DNA of 64,000 bases, from the sequence record NC_054928.1; one strand, 5' to 3'. Within the stretch, counting starts at the first letter, position 1. The number at the start of each line of letters is the position of its first letter. This stretch comes from Escherichia phage vB_vPM_PD112. Under the pieces are notes generated by a model. The model searched no databases and was not told the origin of the DNA. It saw nothing but the letters and a program-made list of their open reading frames with translations. Position numbers and translations under genes: made by a program. Shown piece after piece: positions 13,721-46,247 of the stretch.

Positions 13721-13842
13721 GTCCCATCTCCATATCAATTATGTCATTTATTGTAGGTTCATTATATACTGTTTCTTCATCAGTGTAAACCGGTTCTTCC
13801 GGCTCTGGCTCTACAGTTTCCCATCTAACCGCCCACCAAGGT

Positions 13843-14013
13843 TTAACCCCGAAGCTTATTAAGTTCTTCATAATCAATCCAGGATTCTAGTCCTGATGGC
13901 AAATCATATTCAATTTCCCAAAGAAGTTCTTCAATTTTCTGAAGACGATCTAATTCTTCAGCTGGAATAGTAACCATTGACGGAGCTCTTGCTACATTAA
14001 TATCGTAAATCAT
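13843..14013 (-). CDS. hypothetical small protein
   Basis: Track ORF from GTG; first ATG at residue 14. Confidence 0.4.
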   Translation of the reverse strand: MIYDINVARAPSMVTIPAEELDRLQKIEELLWEIEYDLPSGLESWIDYEELNKLRG

Positions 14014-14015
14014 AT

Positions 14016-14231
14016 TTACCCCAGTTTGACCATACAATCGCCGTATTTCCACTTAGAAATAGACTTTTCACCGTTAGAATAATAAACTTCGAGTTTAGCA
14101 CGGTTATTTTTAATTTGAATAATCTTTGCTGTCATCAAAGTTCCATACCCATAATAAACTGCAACTTCATCACCTACATATACCGCGCTTCCGCGGTAGT
14201 CATGGATATAATCAGTTCCTTCGAGCATCAT
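14016..14231 (-). CDS. hypothetical protein
   Basis: ORF track; ATG start overlapping nrdC stop. Confidence 0.5.
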   Translation of the reverse strand: MMLEGTDYIHDYRGSAVYVGDEVAVYYGYGTLMTAKIIQIKNNRAKLEVYYSNGEKSISKWKYGDCMVKLG

Positions 14232-14491
14232 TTAAAGTATTCCCGCAATTGGTCAAATCCACCAATATGACTTCCATCAGGAGCAAATACTTGTGGCATT
14301 GTCAAACCAATTTGAGTATCACGACCTAGTTTCGTCAGAAGCTCAGCGATTTTCTCATCATCAAAAACACCTTTTTCCGGCATAATATTGATAAATTCAA
14401 ACGGCTGTTTCTTCACAGTCAAAAGACGTTTTGCATTATCGCAATACACACATTTGTGTATGTTGCTATCATAACCATATACTTTAAACAT
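14228..14491 (-). CDS. nrdC: thioredoxin/glutaredoxin NrdC
   Basis: 87 aa; CVYC active site; matches recalled T4 glutaredoxin sequence. Confidence 0.9.
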   Translation of the reverse strand: MFKVYGYDSNIHKCVYCDNAKRLLTVKKQPFEFINIMPEKGVFDDEKIAELLTKLGRDTQIGLTMPQVFAPDGSHIGGFDQLREYFK

Positions 14492-14559: not shown

Positions 14560-14733
14560 TTATGTTTGTATAATATCACTTACTTCTGATAGCATATTTT
14601 TATATGAACGAGTTAAAGCTGATTTAAGCACGCTGTATCTATCAGGAAATTTACCATGTTCATTATAATAAGCTATTGCTAATTCACGGACTGCCTTTTC
14701 AGCAGTCTCCATATATTCTTTACGCTTGGTCAT
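14560..14733 (-). CDS. hypothetical small protein
   Basis: Track ORF from TTG; first ATG at residue 17. Confidence 0.4.
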
Positions 14734-15037
14734 TTTCTTCTCGGTTAAATCGGTGTTTGCAATGACGACATTTATATTCAAGCTCTGGTTTACGCCAGTT
14801 AATCAATTGGACCTGTTCAGTACCACATTTTGGGCAGTTCGGAACATTCTTAGAAGCCCTTTCGCGGCGTTCAACCATAACCATAATGGCATCCCAAGCA
14901 GGAGGTTTAAAGTCTAGATCGTCACAGCCATGAATCTTTCCACGCATTTCCAGATCGTCTTCTTCACCAGCCATAATGATTTTAATTAGACTGGAATTAC
15001 TTGAAGCTGCAATATCTTCTAATAGACGCTTTTTCAT
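14720..15037 (-). CDS. zinc-ribbon protein
   Basis: C-terminal CPKC...CRHC motif; ATG start. Confidence 0.5.
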
Positions 15038-15960
15038 TTCAATACCTCAATAGCATTACGTAAACCATTTGCTTTTGCATTAAGAGCTTTTAACAATTTG
15101 GTATGTTCGGCAATCTGGACTTCAACTTCAATCAAACGAGCATTGAGATATTCGCGTTCTTCGCTCAAGTTATCAATCTTTTCTACTTTAGGTTCTTTTA
15201 CAACTGGCTTATATGTATTAGGGTTCTTCAGTTTAATTAGAATGCGTGAACTGTATAACATTGAACCATTATCTTCGGTTTCATCATACATTTCCACTAC
15301 GTCCATCATCTCCACCATCGTGCAGAGTTTATAAGACAGCGAACGAATAGTTTTGTTATGCTTATTAATTTCTCTAGCTGTCATGGTGCCGAGATTACGT
15401 GAGTAATAATAAGGAACCTGGATATTAATTAATACTGATGAACCACCTGGCTTGTGTGTTACTTCATCAGCAATAACCCAGTCCTTAACATGAACTGTAT
15501 TTGTACGGTCATCGCCCGCGGTAAATAGTTTACGAGCATGCTTAAAAAGCATATTCACTTGGTCATTGAATTGACAAGCGAATTTATCAGCAAATTTAGT
15601 TTCAGGAATGGTAGATAACCAATCAGCTAAATGGGTCTTTTTAACATCGTTAACAATAGTAAATTCAACCAAATCGGTTATAGATGTCGCAGTTTTAATG
15701 AATCTCGGCTTCATAAAGTTTTTAATGTTATCGCGAGCTACAGTAGAAGATAACAGACGAGAACGTTTAAACCATTGAAGCAAATTGCCTAACGAATGAG
15801 AATAAGCGTTTTGAGTATCTTTACAGATATGATTTTCCTGGCCAACATATTGAAGGAAATCACGAAGAATATTATTGATTACTGCTCTGTGCCCAATCTG
15901 ATAATTACGGTGTTTAGTAATAAGACTGTCAAAATAATCAATATAATGTTTACGAGTCAT
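15034..15960 (-). CDS. hypothetical protein with C-terminal coiled-coil tail
   Basis: Track start (TTG) and second Met lie inside an early promoter; ATG at residue 18 has GAGGAG SD. Confidence 0.55.
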   Translation of the reverse strand: MTRKHYIDYFDSLITKHRNYQIGHRAVINNILRDFLQYVGQENHICKDTQNAYSHSLGNLLQWFKRSRLLSSTVARDNIKNFMKPRFIKTATSITDLVEFTIVNDVKKTHLADWLSTIPETKFADKFACQFNDQVNMLFKHARKLFTAGDDRTNTVHVKDWVIADEVTHKPGGSSVLINIQVPYYYSRNLGTMTAREINKHNKTIRSLSYKLCTMVEMMDVVEMYDETEDNGSMLYSSRILIKLKNPNTYKPVVKEPKVEKIDNLSEEREYLNARLIEVEVQIAEHTKLLKALNAKANGLRNAIEVLK

Positions 15961-15988
15961 ATTAATCTCCTCAGTAGAAAGTAAGAAC

Positions 15989-16018
15989 ATTATACCACAT
16001 CCTTGCGGCAAAGTAAAC
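15989..16018 (-). promoter_or_regulatory. T4-type early promoter (GTTTAC ... TGGTATAAT)
   Basis: 17-nt spacer; overlaps first codons of track ORF 15034-16011. Confidence 0.55.
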
Positions 16019-17031
16019 TAGTTCAGTGCATTTAGTGCATTGTTCAGTTTAGAACGTTGCTTCGTGAGATTTTTGACTTTTTCTTGAGCTTTTTCTAACA
16101 TCTTTTCAGCTTCTAACACTTCATTAGTTGCTTTAACGAGTTCATCATCTACTGCCTTAAGAGACTTCTCAATCGCGTCAGCGTGCCATTTTTCTACAGG
16201 TTTAAAATTTGAATTTTCAGTAGGAAGAAAATTCACTTTATTGAATTTCCATGCATTTTTATTACCTGAACTATACATCCAAAATTTAGGATCGTTTGAT
16301 AAGTAATTGGATAAATTTAAATTTAAGTTATCTTGCACTTCCTGCTTTTTCTCTTGCGTGACTTCGTCCTTTCTCAAAAAATCGTATTTAAATGAAACGA
16401 TCATATCAAGTTCATATGTTGTGTCTAAGAAATGCTGTGAAATCTTAGACTGAACAGCGGCAACAACATCCATATACTTAAATGCTTCTGTCAACTGCGA
16501 TTTAAGGCATTCACAAATTGAAAGAGAATTTTTTGTATTAGGTTTAAAGCTAATTCGTGCAGTTCTATTATTTTCTTTTAATGGTCTTACTTCCATCTGA
16601 AGAGTATAACCATCAAATTTCAGATTCTTTAAGTTAATATCAGAACCTTTCAATCGACTCGCAGTTGATAAAATTTGTTTTAATTGTTTACGGAATAGAG
16701 CAATAAATCTCCATTCAAGACGATAATGATTTGGATTAAAAAATCCTGTTGATAAATCGACCTTACTTTGACCAACGCCTTGAACAAATAGAGGATTTTT
16801 ATAATCAATAGTTTTACAGAAATCGGTGAGCTGCTCACGAGCCGTCATTTGCGTAATATACCCTGCTTCGCTAAAATTACGCACCCATTCACTGCTATTC
16901 GTATACTTAAAGTGATGAATAACACGATTAACTTTATCAGGGTCTAAATTATTTTCACACAAAAATGTCATAACATCACGAGTATAACTGGCATTACGAA
17001 CCATATCTTCAATTTGAGAACGAGTTTTCAT
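16018..17031 (-). CDS. hypothetical protein with C-terminal coiled-coil tail
   Basis: 337 aa; ATG start; last ~45 aa heptad-like helix. Confidence 0.55.
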   Translation of the reverse strand: MKTRSQIEDMVRNASYTRDVMTFLCENNLDPDKVNRVIHHFKYTNSSEWVRNFSEAGYITQMTAREQLTDFCKTIDYKNPLFVQGVGQSKVDLSTGFFNPNHYRLEWRFIALFRKQLKQILSTASRLKGSDINLKNLKFDGYTLQMEVRPLKENNRTARISFKPNTKNSLSICECLKSQLTEAFKYMDVVAAVQSKISQHFLDTTYELDMIVSFKYDFLRKDEVTQEKKQEVQDNLNLNLSNYLSNDPKFWMYSSGNKNAWKFNKVNFLPTENSNFKPVEKWHADAIEKSLKAVDDELVKATNEVLEAEKMLEKAQEKVKNLTKQRSKLNNALNALN

Positions 17032-17039
17032 GGTGTTCC

Positions 17040-17930
17040 TTAAGATTTAAGTAAATCAACAATTTTAATTAACTTTTCACGCTCAGATTTAGCTTTACTA
17101 CTCAATCCAGATAGTCTGAAAATTTCATCGTCATATTGTTGAATAGAAATATTCAGCTCTTCAATTTGCTTATTAAAATAATCAATTTGTTCAGAATGTT
17201 TTTCGTTACTACGAACTGGTACAGGTTTTGTAGGCAATTTAGTTGAACTGGATTCATCCGGGCGATAAATTAAAATACAACTTGAACCAATCGGACATTT
17301 AGCACCAGACACATATTCTAATGTTCCGGCTTCTTTTAAAACTTCAAAAGCTAAACAGAGATGATGACCCATATTGGCATAATCTGTAGAGTGAGCTCTG
17401 ATGTAATAATCATCTCCACGAGTACTAAATTTAAAGCATTTAAGGTCTTCTGTATTATTGGTCTTAAAAATCATTTGTTTATCTAGACCTTTAGCTAATC
17501 GAGCGCCTAATGCTAATAATCGTCGTTGATTTTCCCACAAATCCGCAATCATTTGGTCAAATGATAATTTCGGCATTAGTCGACCATAAAGGTCATATCC
17601 TTTATTATAATTACGAAGGATTTCACTCGCATTAATACGAGACAACGCTCCAATTTTATTAAGGGCTTTCATAATGCGATTAGATAAACTCATTCCAGAC
17701 CCGTTTGGTCGCTGTAAATGTTTTTCTAATCCAAATCCAATATCAACTTTAAACTTATCTAAAATTTCGGCATGAACATCTTTATCAATAACATTCAAAT
17801 CCAAAGTTGGGTTAAATCTATGAAAAAATTTATCTGGCTCTCCACGACGAAATACAGTCCATTCATTCATCATTTTTTTATTAACTAAAGATTTAATTAC
17901 TGTATTGACATTATTAATTACTACTGACAT
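17040..17930 (-). CDS. hypothetical protein with C-terminal coiled-coil tail
   Basis: Track ORF from GTG; ATG at residue 13 with GAGGAAAA SD. Confidence 0.55.
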   Translation of the reverse strand: MSVVINNVNTVIKSLVNKKMMNEWTVFRRGEPDKFFHRFNPTLDLNVIDKDVHAEILDKFKVDIGFGLEKHLQRPNGSGMSLSNRIMKALNKIGALSRINASEILRNYNKGYDLYGRLMPKLSFDQMIADLWENQRRLLALGARLAKGLDKQMIFKTNNTEDLKCFKFSTRGDDYYIRAHSTDYANMGHHLCLAFEVLKEAGTLEYVSGAKCPIGSSCILIYRPDESSSTKLPTKPVPVRSNEKHSEQIDYFNKQIEELNISIQQYDDEIFRLSGLSSKAKSEREKLIKIVDLLKS

Positions 17931-17937
17931 ATTTTCC

Positions 17938-18345
17938 TCACTCAATTTCAATTTTACTAAATACACAGAATATGATTGAACAGACTACATAAGCACCACA
18001 CACAGATTGAACTAATACCATCCCAAAGAACCAAACAATATTATCAAACAGTGTCTGTTTTACGTCGAAAGGACGTAAACTTACAGTAATATTATCACCT
18101 TTTTCTATTGAAGAATACATCTCTGGGGAAATATATTCACTAAATCTATAACCGTCTTTGAGTTCATATACAGCAATAAACGATAAACTAGACCCCTTTC
18201 CTTGTGTTCCTGTAATGGTATTAACTACAGTAACATCATAATCTTTATAATGCATATAATCATTAATTGCGTAATAACCGTATGCAACTACTACACATAA
18301 ACAACATATCAATAAATTCAATCTTTTAATTATCAACTGTTTCAT
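17938..18345 (-). CDS. membrane protein (N- and C-terminal hydrophobic helices)
   Basis: ORF track; ATG start; hydrophobic segments at both ends. Confidence 0.5.
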   Translation of the reverse strand: MKQLIIKRLNLLICCLCVVVAYGYYAINDYMHYKDYDVTVVNTITGTQGKGSSLSFIAVYELKDGYRFSEYISPEMYSSIEKGDNITVSLRPFDVKQTLFDNIVWFFGMVLVQSVCGAYVVCSIIFCVFSKIEIE

Positions 18346-18400: not shown

Positions 18401-18928
18401 TTATGCGAGTACCGTCTTTAACCGTTCTTCAAACTTCCGAAGAGTATTTTGGCGTTCAGCTCTTTGCTTTTTGTAAGTTTCAATACGCTCTGAAATGAGA
18501 GTGTATCGTTCATTTACTGATTCTTTCATAAAATCAGGAATTTCACGAGAAGCTTTAATCTCATCAAATTTATCAATAACAGCTTGCTCTTCAGCAATTA
18601 AGTTATCATACATTAAAATATCTTTCTTGATGAACTCAATATCTTCTTGAGTTACACGAGATAATTTAGATGCTTTATCCTTTTTGTACTGTTCGTTAGT
18701 ATCACGAGACCAGTGTAATGTACGATTTTTATTCGTATTCTTATAAATTTCTACAATACCAATCTCATCGATAATAACGATCCAATTCCAATGGGATTTG
18801 TAAATTTGTCCTCCATCAACCGTGATTTCACCTCCAATTGAGATGTCATTAAAGAACTTGCTTTGTGCTTCAGATTTAAATTTACCATCGTTATAATTTA
18901 CCAAGTTGAAAATATCTTTAGCGTTCAT
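18401..18928 (-). CDS. hypothetical protein
   Basis: ORF track; ATG start; early promoter immediately upstream. Confidence 0.5.
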   Translation of the reverse strand: MNAKDIFNLVNYNDGKFKSEAQSKFFNDISIGGEITVDGGQIYKSHWNWIVIIDEIGIVEIYKNTNKNRTLHWSRDTNEQYKKDKASKLSRVTQEDIEFIKKDILMYDNLIAEEQAVIDKFDEIKASREIPDFMKESVNERYTLISERIETYKKQRAERQNTLRKFEERLKTVLA

Positions 18929-19393: not shown

Positions 19394-20362
19394 TTATTTC
19401 AGAAGAGTAACCTCAGCAATTTCTTGCCAACCGTTTTTGTCGGTCATAATAAAGTCAGCAAGATAAAGTGCAGTACGCAGTGAAACATTGCGTAAACGGT
19501 TAACATTGACTTTCATCCATGATAATGCTTTATAAGTTTCTTCATCAGAAAGACCGCGCTTTTGCATCATGTCGGTTGAAAGAATAACATCTTCAACCCT
19601 GACCATAATTTCTTCATTAGTGTGAACACCCAAATCCAAATAAACTGAGCGGGATACTAATGCTTGTAAATGTGGAGCAAGTTTAGTACCACGGTCTAAT
19701 TCGCGGTCAATGTCAACGTTTGTGATAAAAACAATCGTTCCTTTAAATTCAAACTCACGCTCAATGCCTTTTTCTTCTAAGTAAGAAGATGCAGTGCTCC
19801 AGCAGACTTTACGGGTCTCTCCAGTGTCCAGAGCGGCTTTTAGAAGATTAAGAATGTCCATATCAGAGAAAACATCCACATCATCAATCAAAAGGACAGA
19901 ATTCTCTTCACGATTATTCCAAAGTTGTTCATAAAGACCGATACCGGAGATTTTACCGTTAATGCTTTTATATTCAATGTATCCATTATCATTTGCTTTA
20001 TTCAAAGCTTTATCTAAAGAATACGTTTTACCAATACCTGCTGCACCAGAGATAATTAATGAACGAATGTTTCCGTTAATAATACCATTCGTCATCATTC
20101 CCATAACATTAAATCTTTTATTAATGCGGGTTTTCATATCTTCATACGATTCTTTAACTTCTTCAACTTTTACACCATCATATGAAATGTCTGATTTGTA
20201 AACCCAAACACCGCGACGTTTACCGTCAATTTCAACAAAAACTTTACCATCTCCTTGTGCATCTACCGGAGCATTATCTGGGAACCATTCACCTAAGAGC
20301 TCAAAAGTTCCAGAGATTTCTTTACCGAAGTAGATACCCTTATTGATAGTTACAGTTTTCAT
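19394..20362 (-). CDS. P-loop ATPase (AAA-like)
   Basis: Walker A GAAGIGKT, Walker B LLIDDVD; ATG at residue 5 with GGAGAA SD; own early promoter. Confidence 0.6.
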   Translation of the reverse strand: MKTVTINKGIYFGKEISGTFELLGEWFPDNAPVDAQGDGKVFVEIDGKRRGVWVYKSDISYDGVKVEEVKESYEDMKTRINKRFNVMGMMTNGIINGNIRSLIISGAAGIGKTYSLDKALNKANDNGYIEYKSINGKISGIGLYEQLWNNREENSVLLIDDVDVFSDMDILNLLKAALDTGETRKVCWSTASSYLEEKGIEREFEFKGTIVFITNVDIDRELDRGTKLAPHLQALVSRSVYLDLGVHTNEEIMVRVEDVILSTDMMQKRGLSDEETYKALSWMKVNVNRLRNVSLRTALYLADFIMTDKNGWQEIAEVTLLK

Positions 20363-20398
20363 TTTATTCTCCAATTTTACATTTGTTTTGATAGGGTA

Positions 20399-42576: not shown

Positions 42577-43401
42577 TTAGATATTTGACCAGACTTTGTT
42601 TGCAGAGAAACGTTTTCCTTTTGAAACGAACTGCTGAAGTGGCATCAACACAACGTTCGCCCAGTCTTTCGGGGCGATTTCAACAAGGCTACCCATAATA
42701 TTACCAGGTATATATGCCTTAATCATTTGGTCTGCACCCCTAAATCCTTTCACTTGACTCCAATCAATTTTTAATTTTGTTTTATTAGTAATAGTAGGTG
42801 TATTTGAATATTGCTTTAAAAGCTCTTCTAGGAATTGCTGACGAGCTTTAGGTGGAATATAGTGCAAGTTTAATCCATACATTAAATTGTGTTTACCTAA
42901 ACCGAGGTAAATTATCAAAGGAAATTTATCCCAGTAAGGAAGAGTTTCCTTGTGTTTAGCATCATAAGCAAAAGCATATATTCGTCCCGGCTGCGGGCGA
43001 ACAACTTTATGTCCTTTTACCTGCTTAATAGTTTCAGCAAACCACTTTCTGGTTTTATTATTAATTGCTGCGCCTTCATTACGAATTTTATCACGCAATG
43101 TTTGTCTGAATGAATTTATCATAAGCAGTTGTCTTTCTTGCTTATTGAGTTTATTCATTGGTTTTGATTCAAGCTTTTGAATCTTTTCGGCTGTTTTAAT
43201 TCCTGAAGCATATTTTGACATTGCCGAAGTAAACGTAGAGTATTTGATTCCTCTTTCTTCAGCAAATTGCTTTCCTGTCATTCCTTTTGCTTTGGCCTTT
43301 TTGTATTCAAGACCTATCTGAATCCATTTCTTTTCGTTTAATGATTGCTTAACCTTTGGAACTTGGGGAGTGCTTTCATTAATTATTTGAAAAATAGCCA
43401 T
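42577..43401 (-). CDS. 2: DNA end protector protein gp2
   Basis: 274 aa as in T4; ATG start. Confidence 0.85.
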
Positions 43402-43853
43402 TATGCCCCCTTAAAGCCAAGAGCTCGTAATCCATCTTCTGTTAAAATTCTAAATTTTATTCCACGCTTTTCAGCTAAAGCTTGCGCTGCTTTCCATTTG
43501 TCAGTATTAACAGAATATGTATAAATTTCATTCATAAATCTTTTCTTCGCTGCAGTTGTTAGATGTGCCGGTTTAACTGGTGGTTGTGTTTCTTTTTTAG
43601 GTTTTATTTCAATAAAAAATTCTTGTCCAGAAGAATCTTTCATCCAAATATCCATGAAGTATCTACGTTTTTTCCCTTCTGCATTACAAAAATAAGGAAT
43701 TACTGCTGTTTCACTACCCCATGCAATAATTTCTGGATTTTTATCTAACCATTCAAAAAAGAATTTTTCCCAATTTGATCTATACGTAATTTTTTTAGGG
43801 TCACCTCTATATTTTGATATATTTTTAGGAACCCATTTTCCAGAATATGCCAT
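43401..43853 (-). CDS. 4: head completion protein gp4
   Basis: 150 aa as in T4; late promoter upstream. Confidence 0.85.
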
Positions 43854-43864
43854 TGGATTCTCCT

Positions 43865-43872
43865 TATAAATA
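43865..43872 (+). promoter_or_regulatory. late promoter TATAAATA for gene 53
   Basis: Exact TATAAATA about 30 nt upstream of gp53 ATG. Confidence 0.65.
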
Positions 43873-43879
43873 GATAATA

Positions 43880-43887
43880 TATTTATA
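43880..43887 (-). promoter_or_regulatory. late promoter TATAAATA for gene 4
   Basis: Exact TATAAATA on minus strand about 28 nt upstream of gp4 ATG; interleaved with plus-strand promoter. Confidence 0.6.
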
Positions 43888-43900
43888 AACAGGAGGGCCC

Positions 43901-44491
43901 ATGCTCTTTACATTTTTTGATCCGATTGAATATGCGGCCAAAACGGTGAATAAAAACGCGCCGACTATTCCTATGACAGATATTTTTAGAAACTATAAAG
44001 ACTATTTTAAACGCGCTCTTGCGGGATATCGCTTACGTACTTATTATATCAAAGGTTCACCACGCCCGGAAGAATTAGCAAATACTATATATGGAAATCC
44101 GCAGTTGTATTGGGTTTTATTGATGTGTAATGATAATTATGATCCGTATTATGGATGGATTACTTCGCAAGAAGCTGCTTATCAAGCATCTATACAAAAA
44201 TACAAAAACGTAGGTGGAGACCAAATAGTATATCATGTGAATGAGAATGGTGAAAAATTTTATAATTTAATATCATACGATGATAATCCATATGTTTGGT
44301 ATGACAAAGGCGATAAAGCTAGAAAATATCCTCAATATGAAGGAGCACTTGCTGCGGTCGATACGTATGAAGCTGCTGTTCTTGAAAATGAAAAACTTCG
44401 TCAAATAAAAATAATAGCAAAATCAGACATCAATTCATTTATGAACGACCTTATACGTATAATGGAGAAATCTTATGGAAATGATAAGTAA
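43901..44491 (+). CDS. 53: baseplate wedge subunit gp53
   Basis: 196 aa as in T4; GGAGGG SD; late promoter upstream. Confidence 0.85.
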   Translation: MLFTFFDPIEYAAKTVNKNAPTIPMTDIFRNYKDYFKRALAGYRLRTYYIKGSPRPEELANTIYGNPQLYWVLLMCNDNYDPYYGWITSQEAAYQASIQKYKNVGGDQIVYHVNENGEKFYNLISYDDNPYVWYDKGDKARKYPQYEGALAAVDTYEAAVLENEKLRQIKIIAKSDINSFMNDLIRIMEKSYGNDK

Positions 44492-46247
44492 TAACCTTAA
44501 TTGGTTTGTTGGTGTTGTTGAAGATAGAATGGACCCATTAAAATTAGGTCGTGTTCGTGTTCGTGTGGTTGGTCTGCATCCACCTCAAAGAGCGCAAGGC
44601 GATGTAATGGGTATTCCAACCGATAAATTACCATGGATGTCAGTTATTCAACCTATAACTTCTGCAGCAATGTCTGGAATTGGAGGTTCTGTTACAGGAC
44701 CAGTAGAAGGAACTAGAGTTTATGGTCATTTTTTAGACAAATGGAAAACTAACGGAATTGTCCTTGGCACGTATGGTGGGATAGTTCGCGAAAAACCTAA
44801 TAGACTTGAAGGATTTTCTGACCCAACTGGGCAGTATCCTAGACGTCTAGGAAATGATACTAACGTATTAAACCAAGGCGGAGAAGTAGGATATGATTCG
44901 TCTTCTAATATTATCCAAGATAGCAATCTAGACACTGCGATAAATCCTGATGATAGACCATTATCAGAAATTCCAACTGATGATAATCCAAATATGTCAA
45001 TGGCTGAAATGCTTCGCCGTGATGAAGGATTAAGACTAAAAGTTTATTGGGATACAGAAGGATATCCGACAATTGGTATTGGTCATCTTATCATGAAGCA
45101 GCCAGTTCGTGATATGGCCCAAATTAATAAAGTTTTATCAAAACAAGTTGGTCGTGAAATTACCGGAAATCCAGGTTCTATTACAATGGAAGAAGCGGTA
45201 ACTTTATTTGAACGTGATTTAGCTGATATGCAACGTGACATTAAATCACATTCTAAAGTTGGCCCAGTTTGGAAAGCAGTTAATCGTTCTCGTCAAATGG
45301 CATTAGAAAATATGGCATTTCAGATGGGTGTTGGCGGTGTAGCTAAATTTAACACAATGTTAACTGCTATGTTAGCCGGAGATTGGGAAAAAGCATATAA
45401 AGCCGGTCGTGATTCATTGTGGTATCAACAAACAAAAGGCCGTGCATCCCGTGTTACCATGATTATTCTTACAGGCAATTTGGAATCATACGGTATTGAA
45501 GTGAAAACGCCAGCTAGGTCTTTGTCTGCAATGGCTGCTACTGTAGCAAAGTCTTCTGACCCGGCTGACCCTCCTATTCCGAATGATTCGAGAATTTTAT
45601 TCAAAGAACCTGTTTCTTCATATAAAGGTGAGTATCCGTATGTTCACACAATGGAAACTGAAAGCGGTCATATTCAGGAATTTGACGATACCCCGGGACA
45701 AGAACGATACAGATTAGTTCATCCGACTGGAACATATGAGGAAGTATCACCGTCAGGAAGAAGAACAAGAAAAACTGTTGATAATTTGTATGATATAACA
45801 AATGCTGATGGTAATTTTTTGGTAGCCGGTGATAAAAAGACTAACGTCGGTGGATCAGAAATTTATTACAACATGGATAATCGTCTCCACCAAATAGATG
45901 GAAGCAATACAATATTTGTGCGTGGCGACGAAACGAAAACTGTTGAAGGTAATGGAACTATCCTAGTTAAAGGTAATGTTAAAGTAGTTATTCAAGGAAC
46001 AGCAGATATAACTGTTGAACAGGAAGCATACATAACTGTTGAAAAAGACACGACTGTTAATGTTAACCAAAACGCAGACATAAGTGTTAAAAATAAAGCA
46101 ACTGTTAATGCTGAAAATATGGATGTCAACGTTGAGCAAGATTTAAATTTTTCAGCGACAAATATTAATTTAAGTGCATCTAATACTGTTCATATGGATG
46201 GCGGGGTTCTTTCTAAAGTATCAGGTGGAAACGTACAGGTTGGTTAA
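44475..46247 (+). CDS. 5: baseplate hub subunit and tail lysozyme gp5 (cell-puncturing device), variant C-terminal beta-helix
   Basis: N-terminal 470 aa match recalled T4 gp5 incl. lysozyme domain; C-terminal about 110 aa diverge but keep 8-residue periodicity; 590 vs 575 aa. Confidence 0.9.
   Translation: MEMISNNLNWFVGVVEDRMDPLKLGRVRVRVVGLHPPQRAQGDVMGIPTDKLPWMSVIQPITSAAMSGIGGSVTGPVEGTRVYGHFLDKWKTNGIVLGTYGGIVREKPNRLEGFSDPTGQYPRRLGNDTNVLNQGGEVGYDSSSNIIQDSNLDTAINPDDRPLSEIPTDDNPNMSMAEMLRRDEGLRLKVYWDTEGYPTIGIGHLIMKQPVRDMAQINKVLSKQVGREITGNPGSITMEEAVTLFERDLADMQRDIKSHSKVGPVWKAVNRSRQMALENMAFQMGVGGVAKFNTMLTAMLAGDWEKAYKAGRDSLWYQQTKGRASRVTMIILTGNLESYGIEVKTPARSLSAMAATVAKSSDPADPPIPNDSRILFKEPVSSYKGEYPYVHTMETESGHIQEFDDTPGQERYRLVHPTGTYEEVSPSGRRTRKTVDNLYDITNADGNFLVAGDKKTNVGGSEIYYNMDNRLHQIDGSNTIFVRGDETKTVEGNGTILVKGNVKVVIQGTADITVEQEAYITVEKDTTVNVNQNADISVKNKATVNAENMDVNVEQDLNFSATNINLSASNTVHMDGGVLSKVSGGNVQVG

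Follow-up and report, generated by a model that had tools for sequence, protein, structure and literature searches.

The 64,000-nucleotide (nt) stretch of Escherichia phage vB_vPM_PD112 analyzed here (NC_054928.1; hereafter the window, at its full length) carries three consecutive T4-phage early accessory genes, nrdC.3, nrdC.5 and nrdC.6, that look like diverged copies of one ancestral gene and whose products each end in a C-terminal heptad helix. We consider it reasonably likely that they belong to a tandem paralog array, nrdC.3/.4/.5/.6, encoding oligomeric defense inhibitors whose heads evolve fast while the coiled-coil tail is conserved. The proposed superfamily link between these proteins, together with the head-linker-coiled-coil architecture, is what our analysis adds to what was already known of the locus.

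Identity of the three genes

The window belongs to a Tequatrovirus (T4-like phage) genome; over bases 15034-17966 it shares 99.7% identity with Escherichia phage vB_EcoM_CE1 and approximately 96% with hundreds of T-even phages. Gene order and identity were derived from the annotated T4, W143 and CE1 records, and synteny with T4 nrdC-nrdC.8 is conserved. The locus, all on the minus strand, comprises gene 49 (endonuclease VII), pin, nrdC, nrdC.1, nrdC.2, the three open reading frames (ORFs), nrdC.7, nrdC.8, nrdC.9, and nrdC.10. The true NrdC is an 87-amino-acid (aa) ORF at 14228-14491. An initial annotation had delimited the three ORFs as listed below and selected their ATG starts; both choices are confirmed, as all three lie on the minus strand and each start has a Shine-Dalgarno-like sequence (GAGGAG, AAGGA, GAGGAAA). 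A longer, TTG/ATG-extended form of the nrdC.3 ORF would overlap a promoter-like site at 16017-15989 (TTTACT-17-TATAAT, with TG). The T4 counterparts first suggested, nrdC.10 and nrdC.11, are incorrect. The ORFs are orthologs of nrdC.3, nrdC.5 and nrdC.6, and the 326-aa nrdC.10 ortholog is located elsewhere (19394-20374, minus strand).

15034..15960, minus strand: nrdC.3 ortholog, 308 aa, Phage_T4_Y04OP / phrog_1435 (phrog_1435 expectation value (E) 3.6e-116; synteny)
16018..17031, minus strand: nrdC.5 ortholog, 337 aa, DUF7235 (PF23882) (hidden Markov model (HMM) E 2e-117; synteny)
17040..17930, minus strand: nrdC.6 ortholog, 296 aa, Phage_T4_Y05B / phrog_2257 (phrog_2257 E 3.9e-151)

Relative to T4, NrdC.3 is a divergent allele (60% identity), while NrdC.5 is 92% identical and NrdC.6 is 96.5% identical over 259 aa. 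PF23882 matches NrdC.5 over its full length (392.5 bits, cutoff 30; residues 1-337 align with positions 1-307 of the 307-position profile), and nrdC.5 occupies the orthologous position between nrdC.6 and nrdC.4/nrdC.3 by synteny with T4, W143 and CE1. Similarly, PF26897 (Phage_T4_Y04OP) is carried by all close NrdC.3 homologs (97-58% identity), and PF26899 (Phage_T4_Y05B) by 105 of 105 NrdC.6 homologs. The initial annotation was prepared to give up its proposal of shared tails on accessory proteins if clear orthology to a T4 protein of known function emerged. Such orthology exists for nrdC.5, which overcomes the defense protein Dsr1, and the finding is less novel because of it; the structural observation itself stands.

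Many GenBank records label all nrdC.x genes as thioredoxin, and some label nrdC.4 as a Mur ligase domain-containing protein. We reject a thioredoxin/glutaredoxin identity, as no Pfam or NCBIfam match of that fold was found for any of the three proteins, and the Mur ligase label on nrdC.4 is likewise without HMM support. Both labels appear to have been propagated from the locus name "nrdC.x".

C-terminal heptad tails

A heptad-like helix at the end of all three proteins, as the initial annotation described it, is borne out by heptad statistics, by shuffling and, for NrdC.5 and NrdC.6, by AlphaFold2 helices. The tails measure 47-60 residues rather than the roughly 40 first given:

15037..15177, minus strand: NrdC.3 heptad tail, residues 262-308 (heptad score, shuffles, hydrophobicity of heptad positions a and d)
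16021..16200, minus strand: NrdC.5 heptad helix, residues 278-337 (AlphaFold2 helix, eight uninterrupted heptads)
17043..17204, minus strand: NrdC.6 tail, residues 243-296, two helices separated by LSGLS (AlphaFold2, shuffles)

Heptads were scored with a measure of our own, the hydrophobic fraction at a/d positions minus the core-hydrophobic fraction elsewhere in the best register, against a background of 14,755 35-residue segments drawn from the window's 67 ORFs that are 100 aa or longer. The last 35 residues rank at percentile 99.3 for NrdC.3, 99.8 for NrdC.5 and 96.0 for NrdC.6, and the best-scoring segment of each protein falls in its own tail. Composition-preserving shuffles (20,000 per tail) return p = 6e-4, 5e-5 and 1e-4, respectively. 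Alignments of non-redundant family members show hydrophobic residues at 78-86% of a/d positions (83% in the NrdC.3 tail), versus 22-27% of the other positions, and a/d entropy is lower. AlphaFold2 models the NrdC.5 tail as a single helix (278-336; predicted local distance difference test (pLDDT) 77-93) and the NrdC.6 tail as helices 243-272 and 278-295, interrupted at LSGLS. By the sequence criterion for coiled coils, heptads with hydrophobic a/d positions in a predicted helix, all three tails qualify. A single alpha-helix (ER/K) domain was considered and rejected: charged residues make up 32-37% of the three tails, which have a clear a/d hydrophobic seam.

The pattern extends beyond the three genes. 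T4 NrdC.4 has a tail of the same kind, and hydrophobic residues recur at -1, -4, -8, -11, -15 and -18, counted from the C-terminal K/N, in all four families. Within the window such C-termini occur in only 4 of the 67 ORFs, namely the three genes and nrdC.8, two genes further on; by our own combinatorial estimate, the chance of such clustering is approximately 1e-3 or less.

18401..18928, minus strand: nrdC.8 ortholog, 175 aa, with a heptad C-terminal helix at residues 135-175 (nt 18404-18526)

The nrdC.8 tail scores at percentile 99.1 (shuffle p 5e-4). Nonetheless, nrdC.8 was not accepted as a family member, since the tail is all it has in common with the others and its body is unrelated (hhalign comparisons with the other families are not significant). 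Across 23 loci from four genera, the tail is retained in every intact member of the family. In the NrdC.6 family it is the most conserved region, with a mean identity of 0.69 versus 0.35-0.46 in the body.

Relationships among the heads

The initial annotation viewed these proteins as unrelated-looking bodies on a shared, modular tail, and suspected that the first two were diverged paralogs. The second idea is the one that endures, by way of a bridging gene, nrdC.4, that is present in T4 and absent from the window. BLASTP aligns the window NrdC.3 with T4 NrdC.4 over 271 residues (E 1e-7). With tails removed, hhalign relates NrdC.3 to NrdC.4 (probability 97.6%, E 5e-12) and NrdC.4 to NrdC.5 (probability 82%, rising to 93% and E 3e-7 with more diverse full-length profiles). 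A merged NrdC.3+NrdC.4 profile reaches NrdC.6 over 174 columns (probability 50%, E 1.6e-4). The weak pairwise alignments among the families have mutually consistent offsets, and they share an aligned motif (FKRSRLLSSTVARDNIKNF / FSEAGYITQMTAREQLTDF / LNKIGALSRINASEILRNY) as well as an A-S/A-R-L helix. DUF7235 is weakly touched by 4 of 18 NrdC.3/.4 members. From these profile comparisons, NrdC.3, NrdC.4 and NrdC.5 are homologous paralogs over the body, and NrdC.6 is probably homologous to them too. Pfam merges NrdC.3 and NrdC.4 as Phage_T4_Y04OP and keeps DUF7235 and Phage_T4_Y05B as separate families.

Predicted structures give a compatible picture. In the NrdC.5 and NrdC.6 models the elements follow the same order: N-terminal helices, a beta-beta-alpha-beta-beta unit, a low-confidence linker, and the tail.

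16390..16602, minus strand: NrdC.5 beta-beta-alpha-beta-beta unit, residues 144-214, includes MDVV (AlphaFold2)
16210..16374, minus strand: NrdC.5 variable linker, residues 220-274 (pLDDT approximately 30)
17265..17435, minus strand: NrdC.6 beta-beta-alpha-beta-beta unit, residues 166-222 (AlphaFold2)

The NrdC.5 unit consists of strands 144-152, 155-162, 190-199 and 206-214 with helix 169-185 (pLDDT 63-87), and the NrdC.6 unit of strands 166-171, 174-179, 205-210 and 218-222 with helix 187-200. The NrdC.5 linker, probably disordered judging from the model, is the least conserved part of its family (mean identity 0.73 versus 0.88-0.91 elsewhere). Structural matches in BFVD common to both models are uncharacterized 300-370-aa proteins of other Straboviridae, including one of Erwinia phage Cronus (E 1.5e-5 and 1.5e-4 for the two models) and one of Klebsiella phage Mineola (E 1.9e-5 and 1.7e-4).

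Two short motifs had been cited as shared by NrdC.3 and NrdC.5. MDVV is indeed homologous, with NrdC.3 residues 218-221 equivalent to NrdC.5 187-190 at the end of the helix in the beta-alpha-beta unit. MTARE is a coincidence; NrdC.5 MTARE (62-66) aligns with NrdC.3 TVARD (72-76), not with NrdC.3 MTARE (193-197). Overall, since NrdC.3, NrdC.4 and NrdC.5 are related over the body, NrdC.6 probably is too, and the two models have their elements in the same order, the array would have arisen by whole-gene duplication and divergence rather than domain shuffling. The tail evolves more slowly than the mid-body, as do the N-terminal 80 residues in NrdC.3.

Searches for more distant relatives return little. 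Profile searches of solved structures with NrdC.5, NrdC.6 and NrdC.3+NrdC.4 yield only designed repeats and generic coiled coils (best E 0.02-0.04). Foldseek finds no match between the NrdC.6 model and the PDB at E <= 0.001; the best hits are designed proteins and a weak H-NOX likeness (E 0.02-0.06, template-modeling (TM) score at most 0.35), which we do not take as evidence. A weak match of NrdC.3 residues 29-87 to the XerC/XerD recombinase N-terminal domain (NCBIfam E 9e-4, far below cutoff) was rejected because it is not reproduced across the family, in which only 3 of 18 NrdC.3/.4 members match Phage_int_SAM_1 (E at least 0.08). PHL-domain matches in 9 of the same 18 (best E 7.5e-4, under the gathering score) are not interpretable. 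The NrdC.5 profile retrieves 13 proteins from 1.84 billion representatives, none an informative distant relative, and the family is thus narrow. An IMG/VR scan with the NrdC.6 profile recovered only loci within the identity range of known homologs (45-97%).

One candidate for a natural head swap, P0203, was set aside. This 173-aa protein joins an unrelated 115-aa head to an NrdC.5-identical tail. Its source is an 803-bp singleton contig from a metagenome, and a search of 50,697 phage records did not recover the head; we regard the protein as a probable assembly chimera and do not use it as evidence.

Loss of nrdC.4 and hypervariability of the array

The locus is hypervariable and recombinogenic. 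In the window, nrdC.4 is absent and its former position is marked by a junction, which we compared with T4 (NC_000866, locus L003 8861-8914 and 9917-9973).

15950..16017, minus strand: promoter-like site, ribosome-binding site and the opening 11 nt of nrdC.3, marking where nrdC.4 was deleted (alignment to T4)
15181..15720, minus strand: hypervariable middle of the NrdC.3 body, residues 81-260 (identity to T4 in 20-residue blocks)

The window follows the T4 nrdC.5/nrdC.4 spacer and the start of nrdC.4 through ATGACTCGTAA (the first 11 nt), with one mismatch over the whole aligned stretch, and continues thereafter as nrdC.3; an approximately 1-kb indel at the nrdC.4 position is also visible in the genome comparison. 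As the junction switches from nrdC.4 to nrdC.3, nrdC.4 was lost when the two genes recombined at their similar 5' ends. The remaining nrdC.3 therefore uses the former nrdC.4 promoter, ribosome-binding site and first codons (MTRK... instead of MKTRK...).

In NrdC.3, divergence is concentrated in the middle of the body. The protein is 70-95% identical to T4 over residues 1-80, 30-65% over most of residues 81-260 (one block at 70%), and 65-100% in the tail (75-100% for residues 262-308), and on either side NrdC matches T4 at 100% and gp49 at 99.4% identity. In phage JK45, of the same genus, the nrdC.5 and nrdC.6 alleles diverge strongly but retain their tails. Gene content also varies among the 23 loci compared. 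T4-type phages encode the array nrdC.8-.7-.6-.5-.4-.3, while Dhakavirus/Gaprivervirus loci (L004-L006) and other divergent IMG/VR loci encode nrdC.8-.6-.5-like-.4 without nrdC.3. Also found are genes that are split, deletions inside the tails, and a fusion, nrdC.5::nrdC.3. We favor reading the divergence of the NrdC.3 head, the JK45 alleles, and the gene losses, fusion and frameshifts as the signature of an arms race.

Gene decay, these loci indicate, is frequent in the array. In a 167-kb phage contig (L008 4570-5900; L009 1931-3261), a frameshift leaves nrdC.5 as a 115-aa N-terminal fragment, after which comes the nrdC.5::nrdC.3 fusion ORF, P0057, joined at ...KFNKVN/MLFKH..., another recombination between paralogs. 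Internal tail deletions in nrdC.4/nrdC.8 homologs and split nrdC.4 or nrdC.5 genes are seen at L014 5446-5871 and 7781-8752, L013 7950-8982, and L004 4038-4942.

In the T4 reference NC_000866 itself (L003 11067-11140), a 1-nt deletion (GAGCTG-ATATT) frameshifts nrdC.6 and removes the second half of the tail. The intact tail can be read in another frame, and a second T4 record, MT984581, is intact (compared with window positions 17040-17120). The frameshift is either a sequencing error or a laboratory-strain mutation.

A homolog of NrdC.5 that is 93% identical, P0008, resides on a 489-kb contig labeled Escherichia coli. This contig may be a misassembly or contamination, as it is longer than any T4-like genome.

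Counter-defense context

The role of nrdC.5 in overcoming host defense is documented in T4. According to Srikant, Guegler & Laub (eLife 2022; PMC9391042), an evolved, deletion-bearing T4 clone failed on ECOR17 but infected it once dsr1 had been deleted from that strain. Plasmid-borne dsr1 shielded MG1655 from the evolved clone, and expression of T4 nrdC.5 restored infectivity. The demonstration of anti-Dsr1 activity was thus made with the T4 allele of nrdC.5, supplied on a plasmid. Dsr1 is a SIR2 effector, a defense that depletes nicotinamide adenine dinucleotide (NAD), and the sensor domain that it shares with Avs7 recognizes phage major capsid proteins (PMC13581612). The literature searched reports no mechanism for NrdC.5, and PMC9391042 gives no mechanism and, in the sections consulted, no domain architecture.

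Other products of the same T-even locus also inhibit defense systems. Gp49.2 inhibits OLD (PMC13096335), and nrdC.1 inhibits Septu, as reported in a preprint (bioRxiv 10.1101/2025.11.20.689424). Because NrdC.5, gp49.2 and NrdC.1 block Dsr1, OLD and Septu, the locus looks like an anti-defense island. In a DRT1 paper, nrdC.8 features only as a down-regulated transcript.

In the window, the pin-nrdC interval (13738-14231, minus strand) encodes just two short products, of 69 and 71 aa, in place of 49.1, 49.2 and 49.3 of T4. ORFs of the T4 49.1-49.3 sizes are not apparent in the window, although 49.2 itself was not searched for, and the phage may be without the OLD inhibitor gp49.2.

Proposed explanation and alternatives

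We propose a common layout for the members of the array, in which a helical N-domain precedes the beta-beta-alpha-beta-beta unit and a flexible linker leads to an amphipathic heptad helix at the C-terminus. The fast-evolving head would bind a host immunity protein; for NrdC.5 the target would be Dsr1, possibly at its capsid-protein sensor. The conserved tail would form a coiled coil, yielding an oligomeric inhibitor whose flexibly tethered heads may bind oligomeric targets with avidity. NrdC.3 and NrdC.6 may inhibit other defense systems or variants of Dsr1. In this scheme we infer both tail self-association and direct target binding; oligomerization via the tail is plausible.

Several observations weigh against the proposal. 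The NrdC.6 tail is broken, and the tail core is alanine-rich; in NrdC.5, alanine occupies 4 of the 16 a/d positions. Profiles of the tails resemble one another weakly (E 1e-3 to 3e-2), at a level hard to tell from generic coiled-coil composition; reversed-tail controls gave weaker similarity. Confidence in the NrdC.5 model is low (mean pLDDT 60.5), and Foldseek matches can be driven up by long helices. NrdC.6 is linked by the 50% hhalign probability given above, TM-scores of 0.3-0.5, and the order of secondary-structure elements. The window NrdC.5 is 92%, not 100%, identical to the T4 protein that was tested, and paralogy and genomic neighborhood are what suggest an anti-defense role for NrdC.3 and NrdC.6. 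HIDEN-SEQ names nrdC.1 from this locus, and nrdC.3, nrdC.5 and nrdC.6 go unmentioned in the available text of that preprint (bioRxiv 10.1101/2025.11.20.689424).

The main rival to an oligomerizing tail is a common docking helix for one shared partner, whether from the host, from the phage or an element conserved among defense proteins, with the heads supplying different activities. In four families the tails agree in their final heptad register and finish in a similar L-x-x-L-K/N sequence, as a docking helix might; it would also fit that the tail is the most conserved region of the NrdC.6 family, and that the core is alanine-rich and moderately hydrophobic and is modeled by AlphaFold2 as a helix in the monomer. 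However, it is the a/d core that is conserved; the surface positions (b, c, e, f, g) are very different from one family to another and variable inside each, and the pattern therefore resembles a coiled-coil core, not a recognition surface. The weak tail-to-tail similarity also speaks against a common partner, and we disfavor the docking helix as unlikely. Another alternative, somewhat more doubtful, confines the family to NrdC.3/.4/.5 and has NrdC.6 (and nrdC.8, if counted) acquire an amphipathic helix independently, so that the run of tails is partly coincidence or convergence. Body-only hhalign comparisons of NrdC.6 with single families are not significant (E 0.045-0.2), Pfam maintains three separate families, and the nrdC.8 body has no relation to the others. 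Against this stand the match to the merged NrdC.3+NrdC.4 profile, which includes the S-R-x-x-A-x-E-x-L-x-N-F/Y and A-R-L motifs, the same element order and common BFVD matches of the AlphaFold2 models, and the clustering of the four tailed ORFs.

A role unconnected to host defense, whether in nucleotide metabolism/redox or in general host take-over, is very improbable. The GenBank thioredoxin label and the adjoining nrdC, nrdD and nrdG genes would suit it, but there are no thioredoxin, glutaredoxin or Mur ligase matches in Pfam or NCBIfam, T4 nrdC.5 has a direct anti-Dsr1 phenotype, and T4 tolerates deletion of the locus on laboratory hosts (PMC9391042). Hypervariability and the presence/absence pattern are likewise ill-suited to core metabolism. 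Finally, the array of oligomeric inhibitors that we prefer could be extended to a bolder form, in which NrdC.3/.4/.5/.6 (and perhaps NrdC.8) are diversifying defense-sensor blockers whose compatible tails co-assemble on a hetero-oligomeric stalk as a combinatorial, multi-target counter-defense particle. This is speculative, and we rate it below both the docking helix and an independent NrdC.6; if true, the specificity of the particle would be retuned as genes of the array are gained, lost or recombined.

Comparison with known systems

The window NrdC.5 corresponds to T4 NrdC.5 (UniProt Y05A; DUF7235) in length class, genomic position and full-length DUF7235, and differs from it by a small indel at residues 197-205, linker changes, and tail surface positions. 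T4 NrdC.3/NrdC.4 (PF26897) and NrdC.6 (PF26899), to which the flanking ORFs 15034-15960 and 17040-17930 are orthologous, are uncharacterized early proteins. Pfam treats Y04OP, DUF7235 and Y05B as unrelated; profile comparison and predicted structure link them here, Y05B more weakly.

A conceptual parallel is provided by the T4 internal proteins IPI, IPII and IPIII, fast-evolving paralogous accessory and counter-defense proteins from a hypervariable T-even locus that carry a short conserved terminal segment on variable bodies. That segment lies at the N-terminus, directs the proteins to the capsid, and is removed by cleavage once they are packaged. In the nrdC.x proteins, which have no sequence relation to the internal proteins, the conserved segment is instead a C-terminal heptad helix of 47-60 residues. 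IPIII is also discussed in PMC9391042.

DSAD1, the phage inhibitor of the DSR2 sirtuin (PMC10981675, PMC11087589), is a functional analogue of NrdC.5 that blocks a SIR2-type NAD-depleting defense sensing a virion structural protein. Unlike NrdC.5, it derives from the SPbeta phage group and targets DSR2 rather than Dsr1; the two are likened by function, not by direct comparison. Binding-site competition is established for DSAD1 and is conjecture for NrdC.5. Gp49.2 and NrdC.1 come from the same pin-nrdC.x early-gene region (PMC13096335; bioRxiv 10.1101/2025.11.20.689424), but they are small, unrelated to NrdC.3/.5/.6, and without the head-linker-tail architecture.

Implications

T4 nrdC.5 is one of few known inhibitors of SIR2-type defense (Dsr1), and its paralog family provides further counter-defense candidates in nrdC.3, nrdC.4 and nrdC.6. 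The architecture suggests a design principle, that of an oligomeric, flexibly tethered inhibitor. Natural variants are already at hand in the nrdC.4 deletion described here, the divergent NrdC.3 head, and the tail-frameshifted nrdC.6 of the T4 reference. The widespread thioredoxin labels on nrdC.x genes are corrected. Since these are well-known, conserved T-even accessory genes, one with a published counter-defense role, novelty is modest and the gain incremental; relative to the account of nrdC.5 in the available sections of PMC9391042, the coiled-coil tail and the paralogy are additions.

Other features of the window

The nrdC.10 ortholog contains a Walker A motif (GAAGIGKT) and has weak, sub-threshold matches to STAND/AAA NTPase families. 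Likewise, nrdC.2 (14720-15037, minus strand, 105 aa) features a C-terminal CxxC...CxxC zinc-ribbon-like segment with weak Pfam zinc-ribbon matches below cutoffs. At the scale of the whole window, the guanine-cytosine (GC) skew changes sign near 44 kb (approximately 43000-45000), possibly because the direction in which most genes are transcribed switches there.

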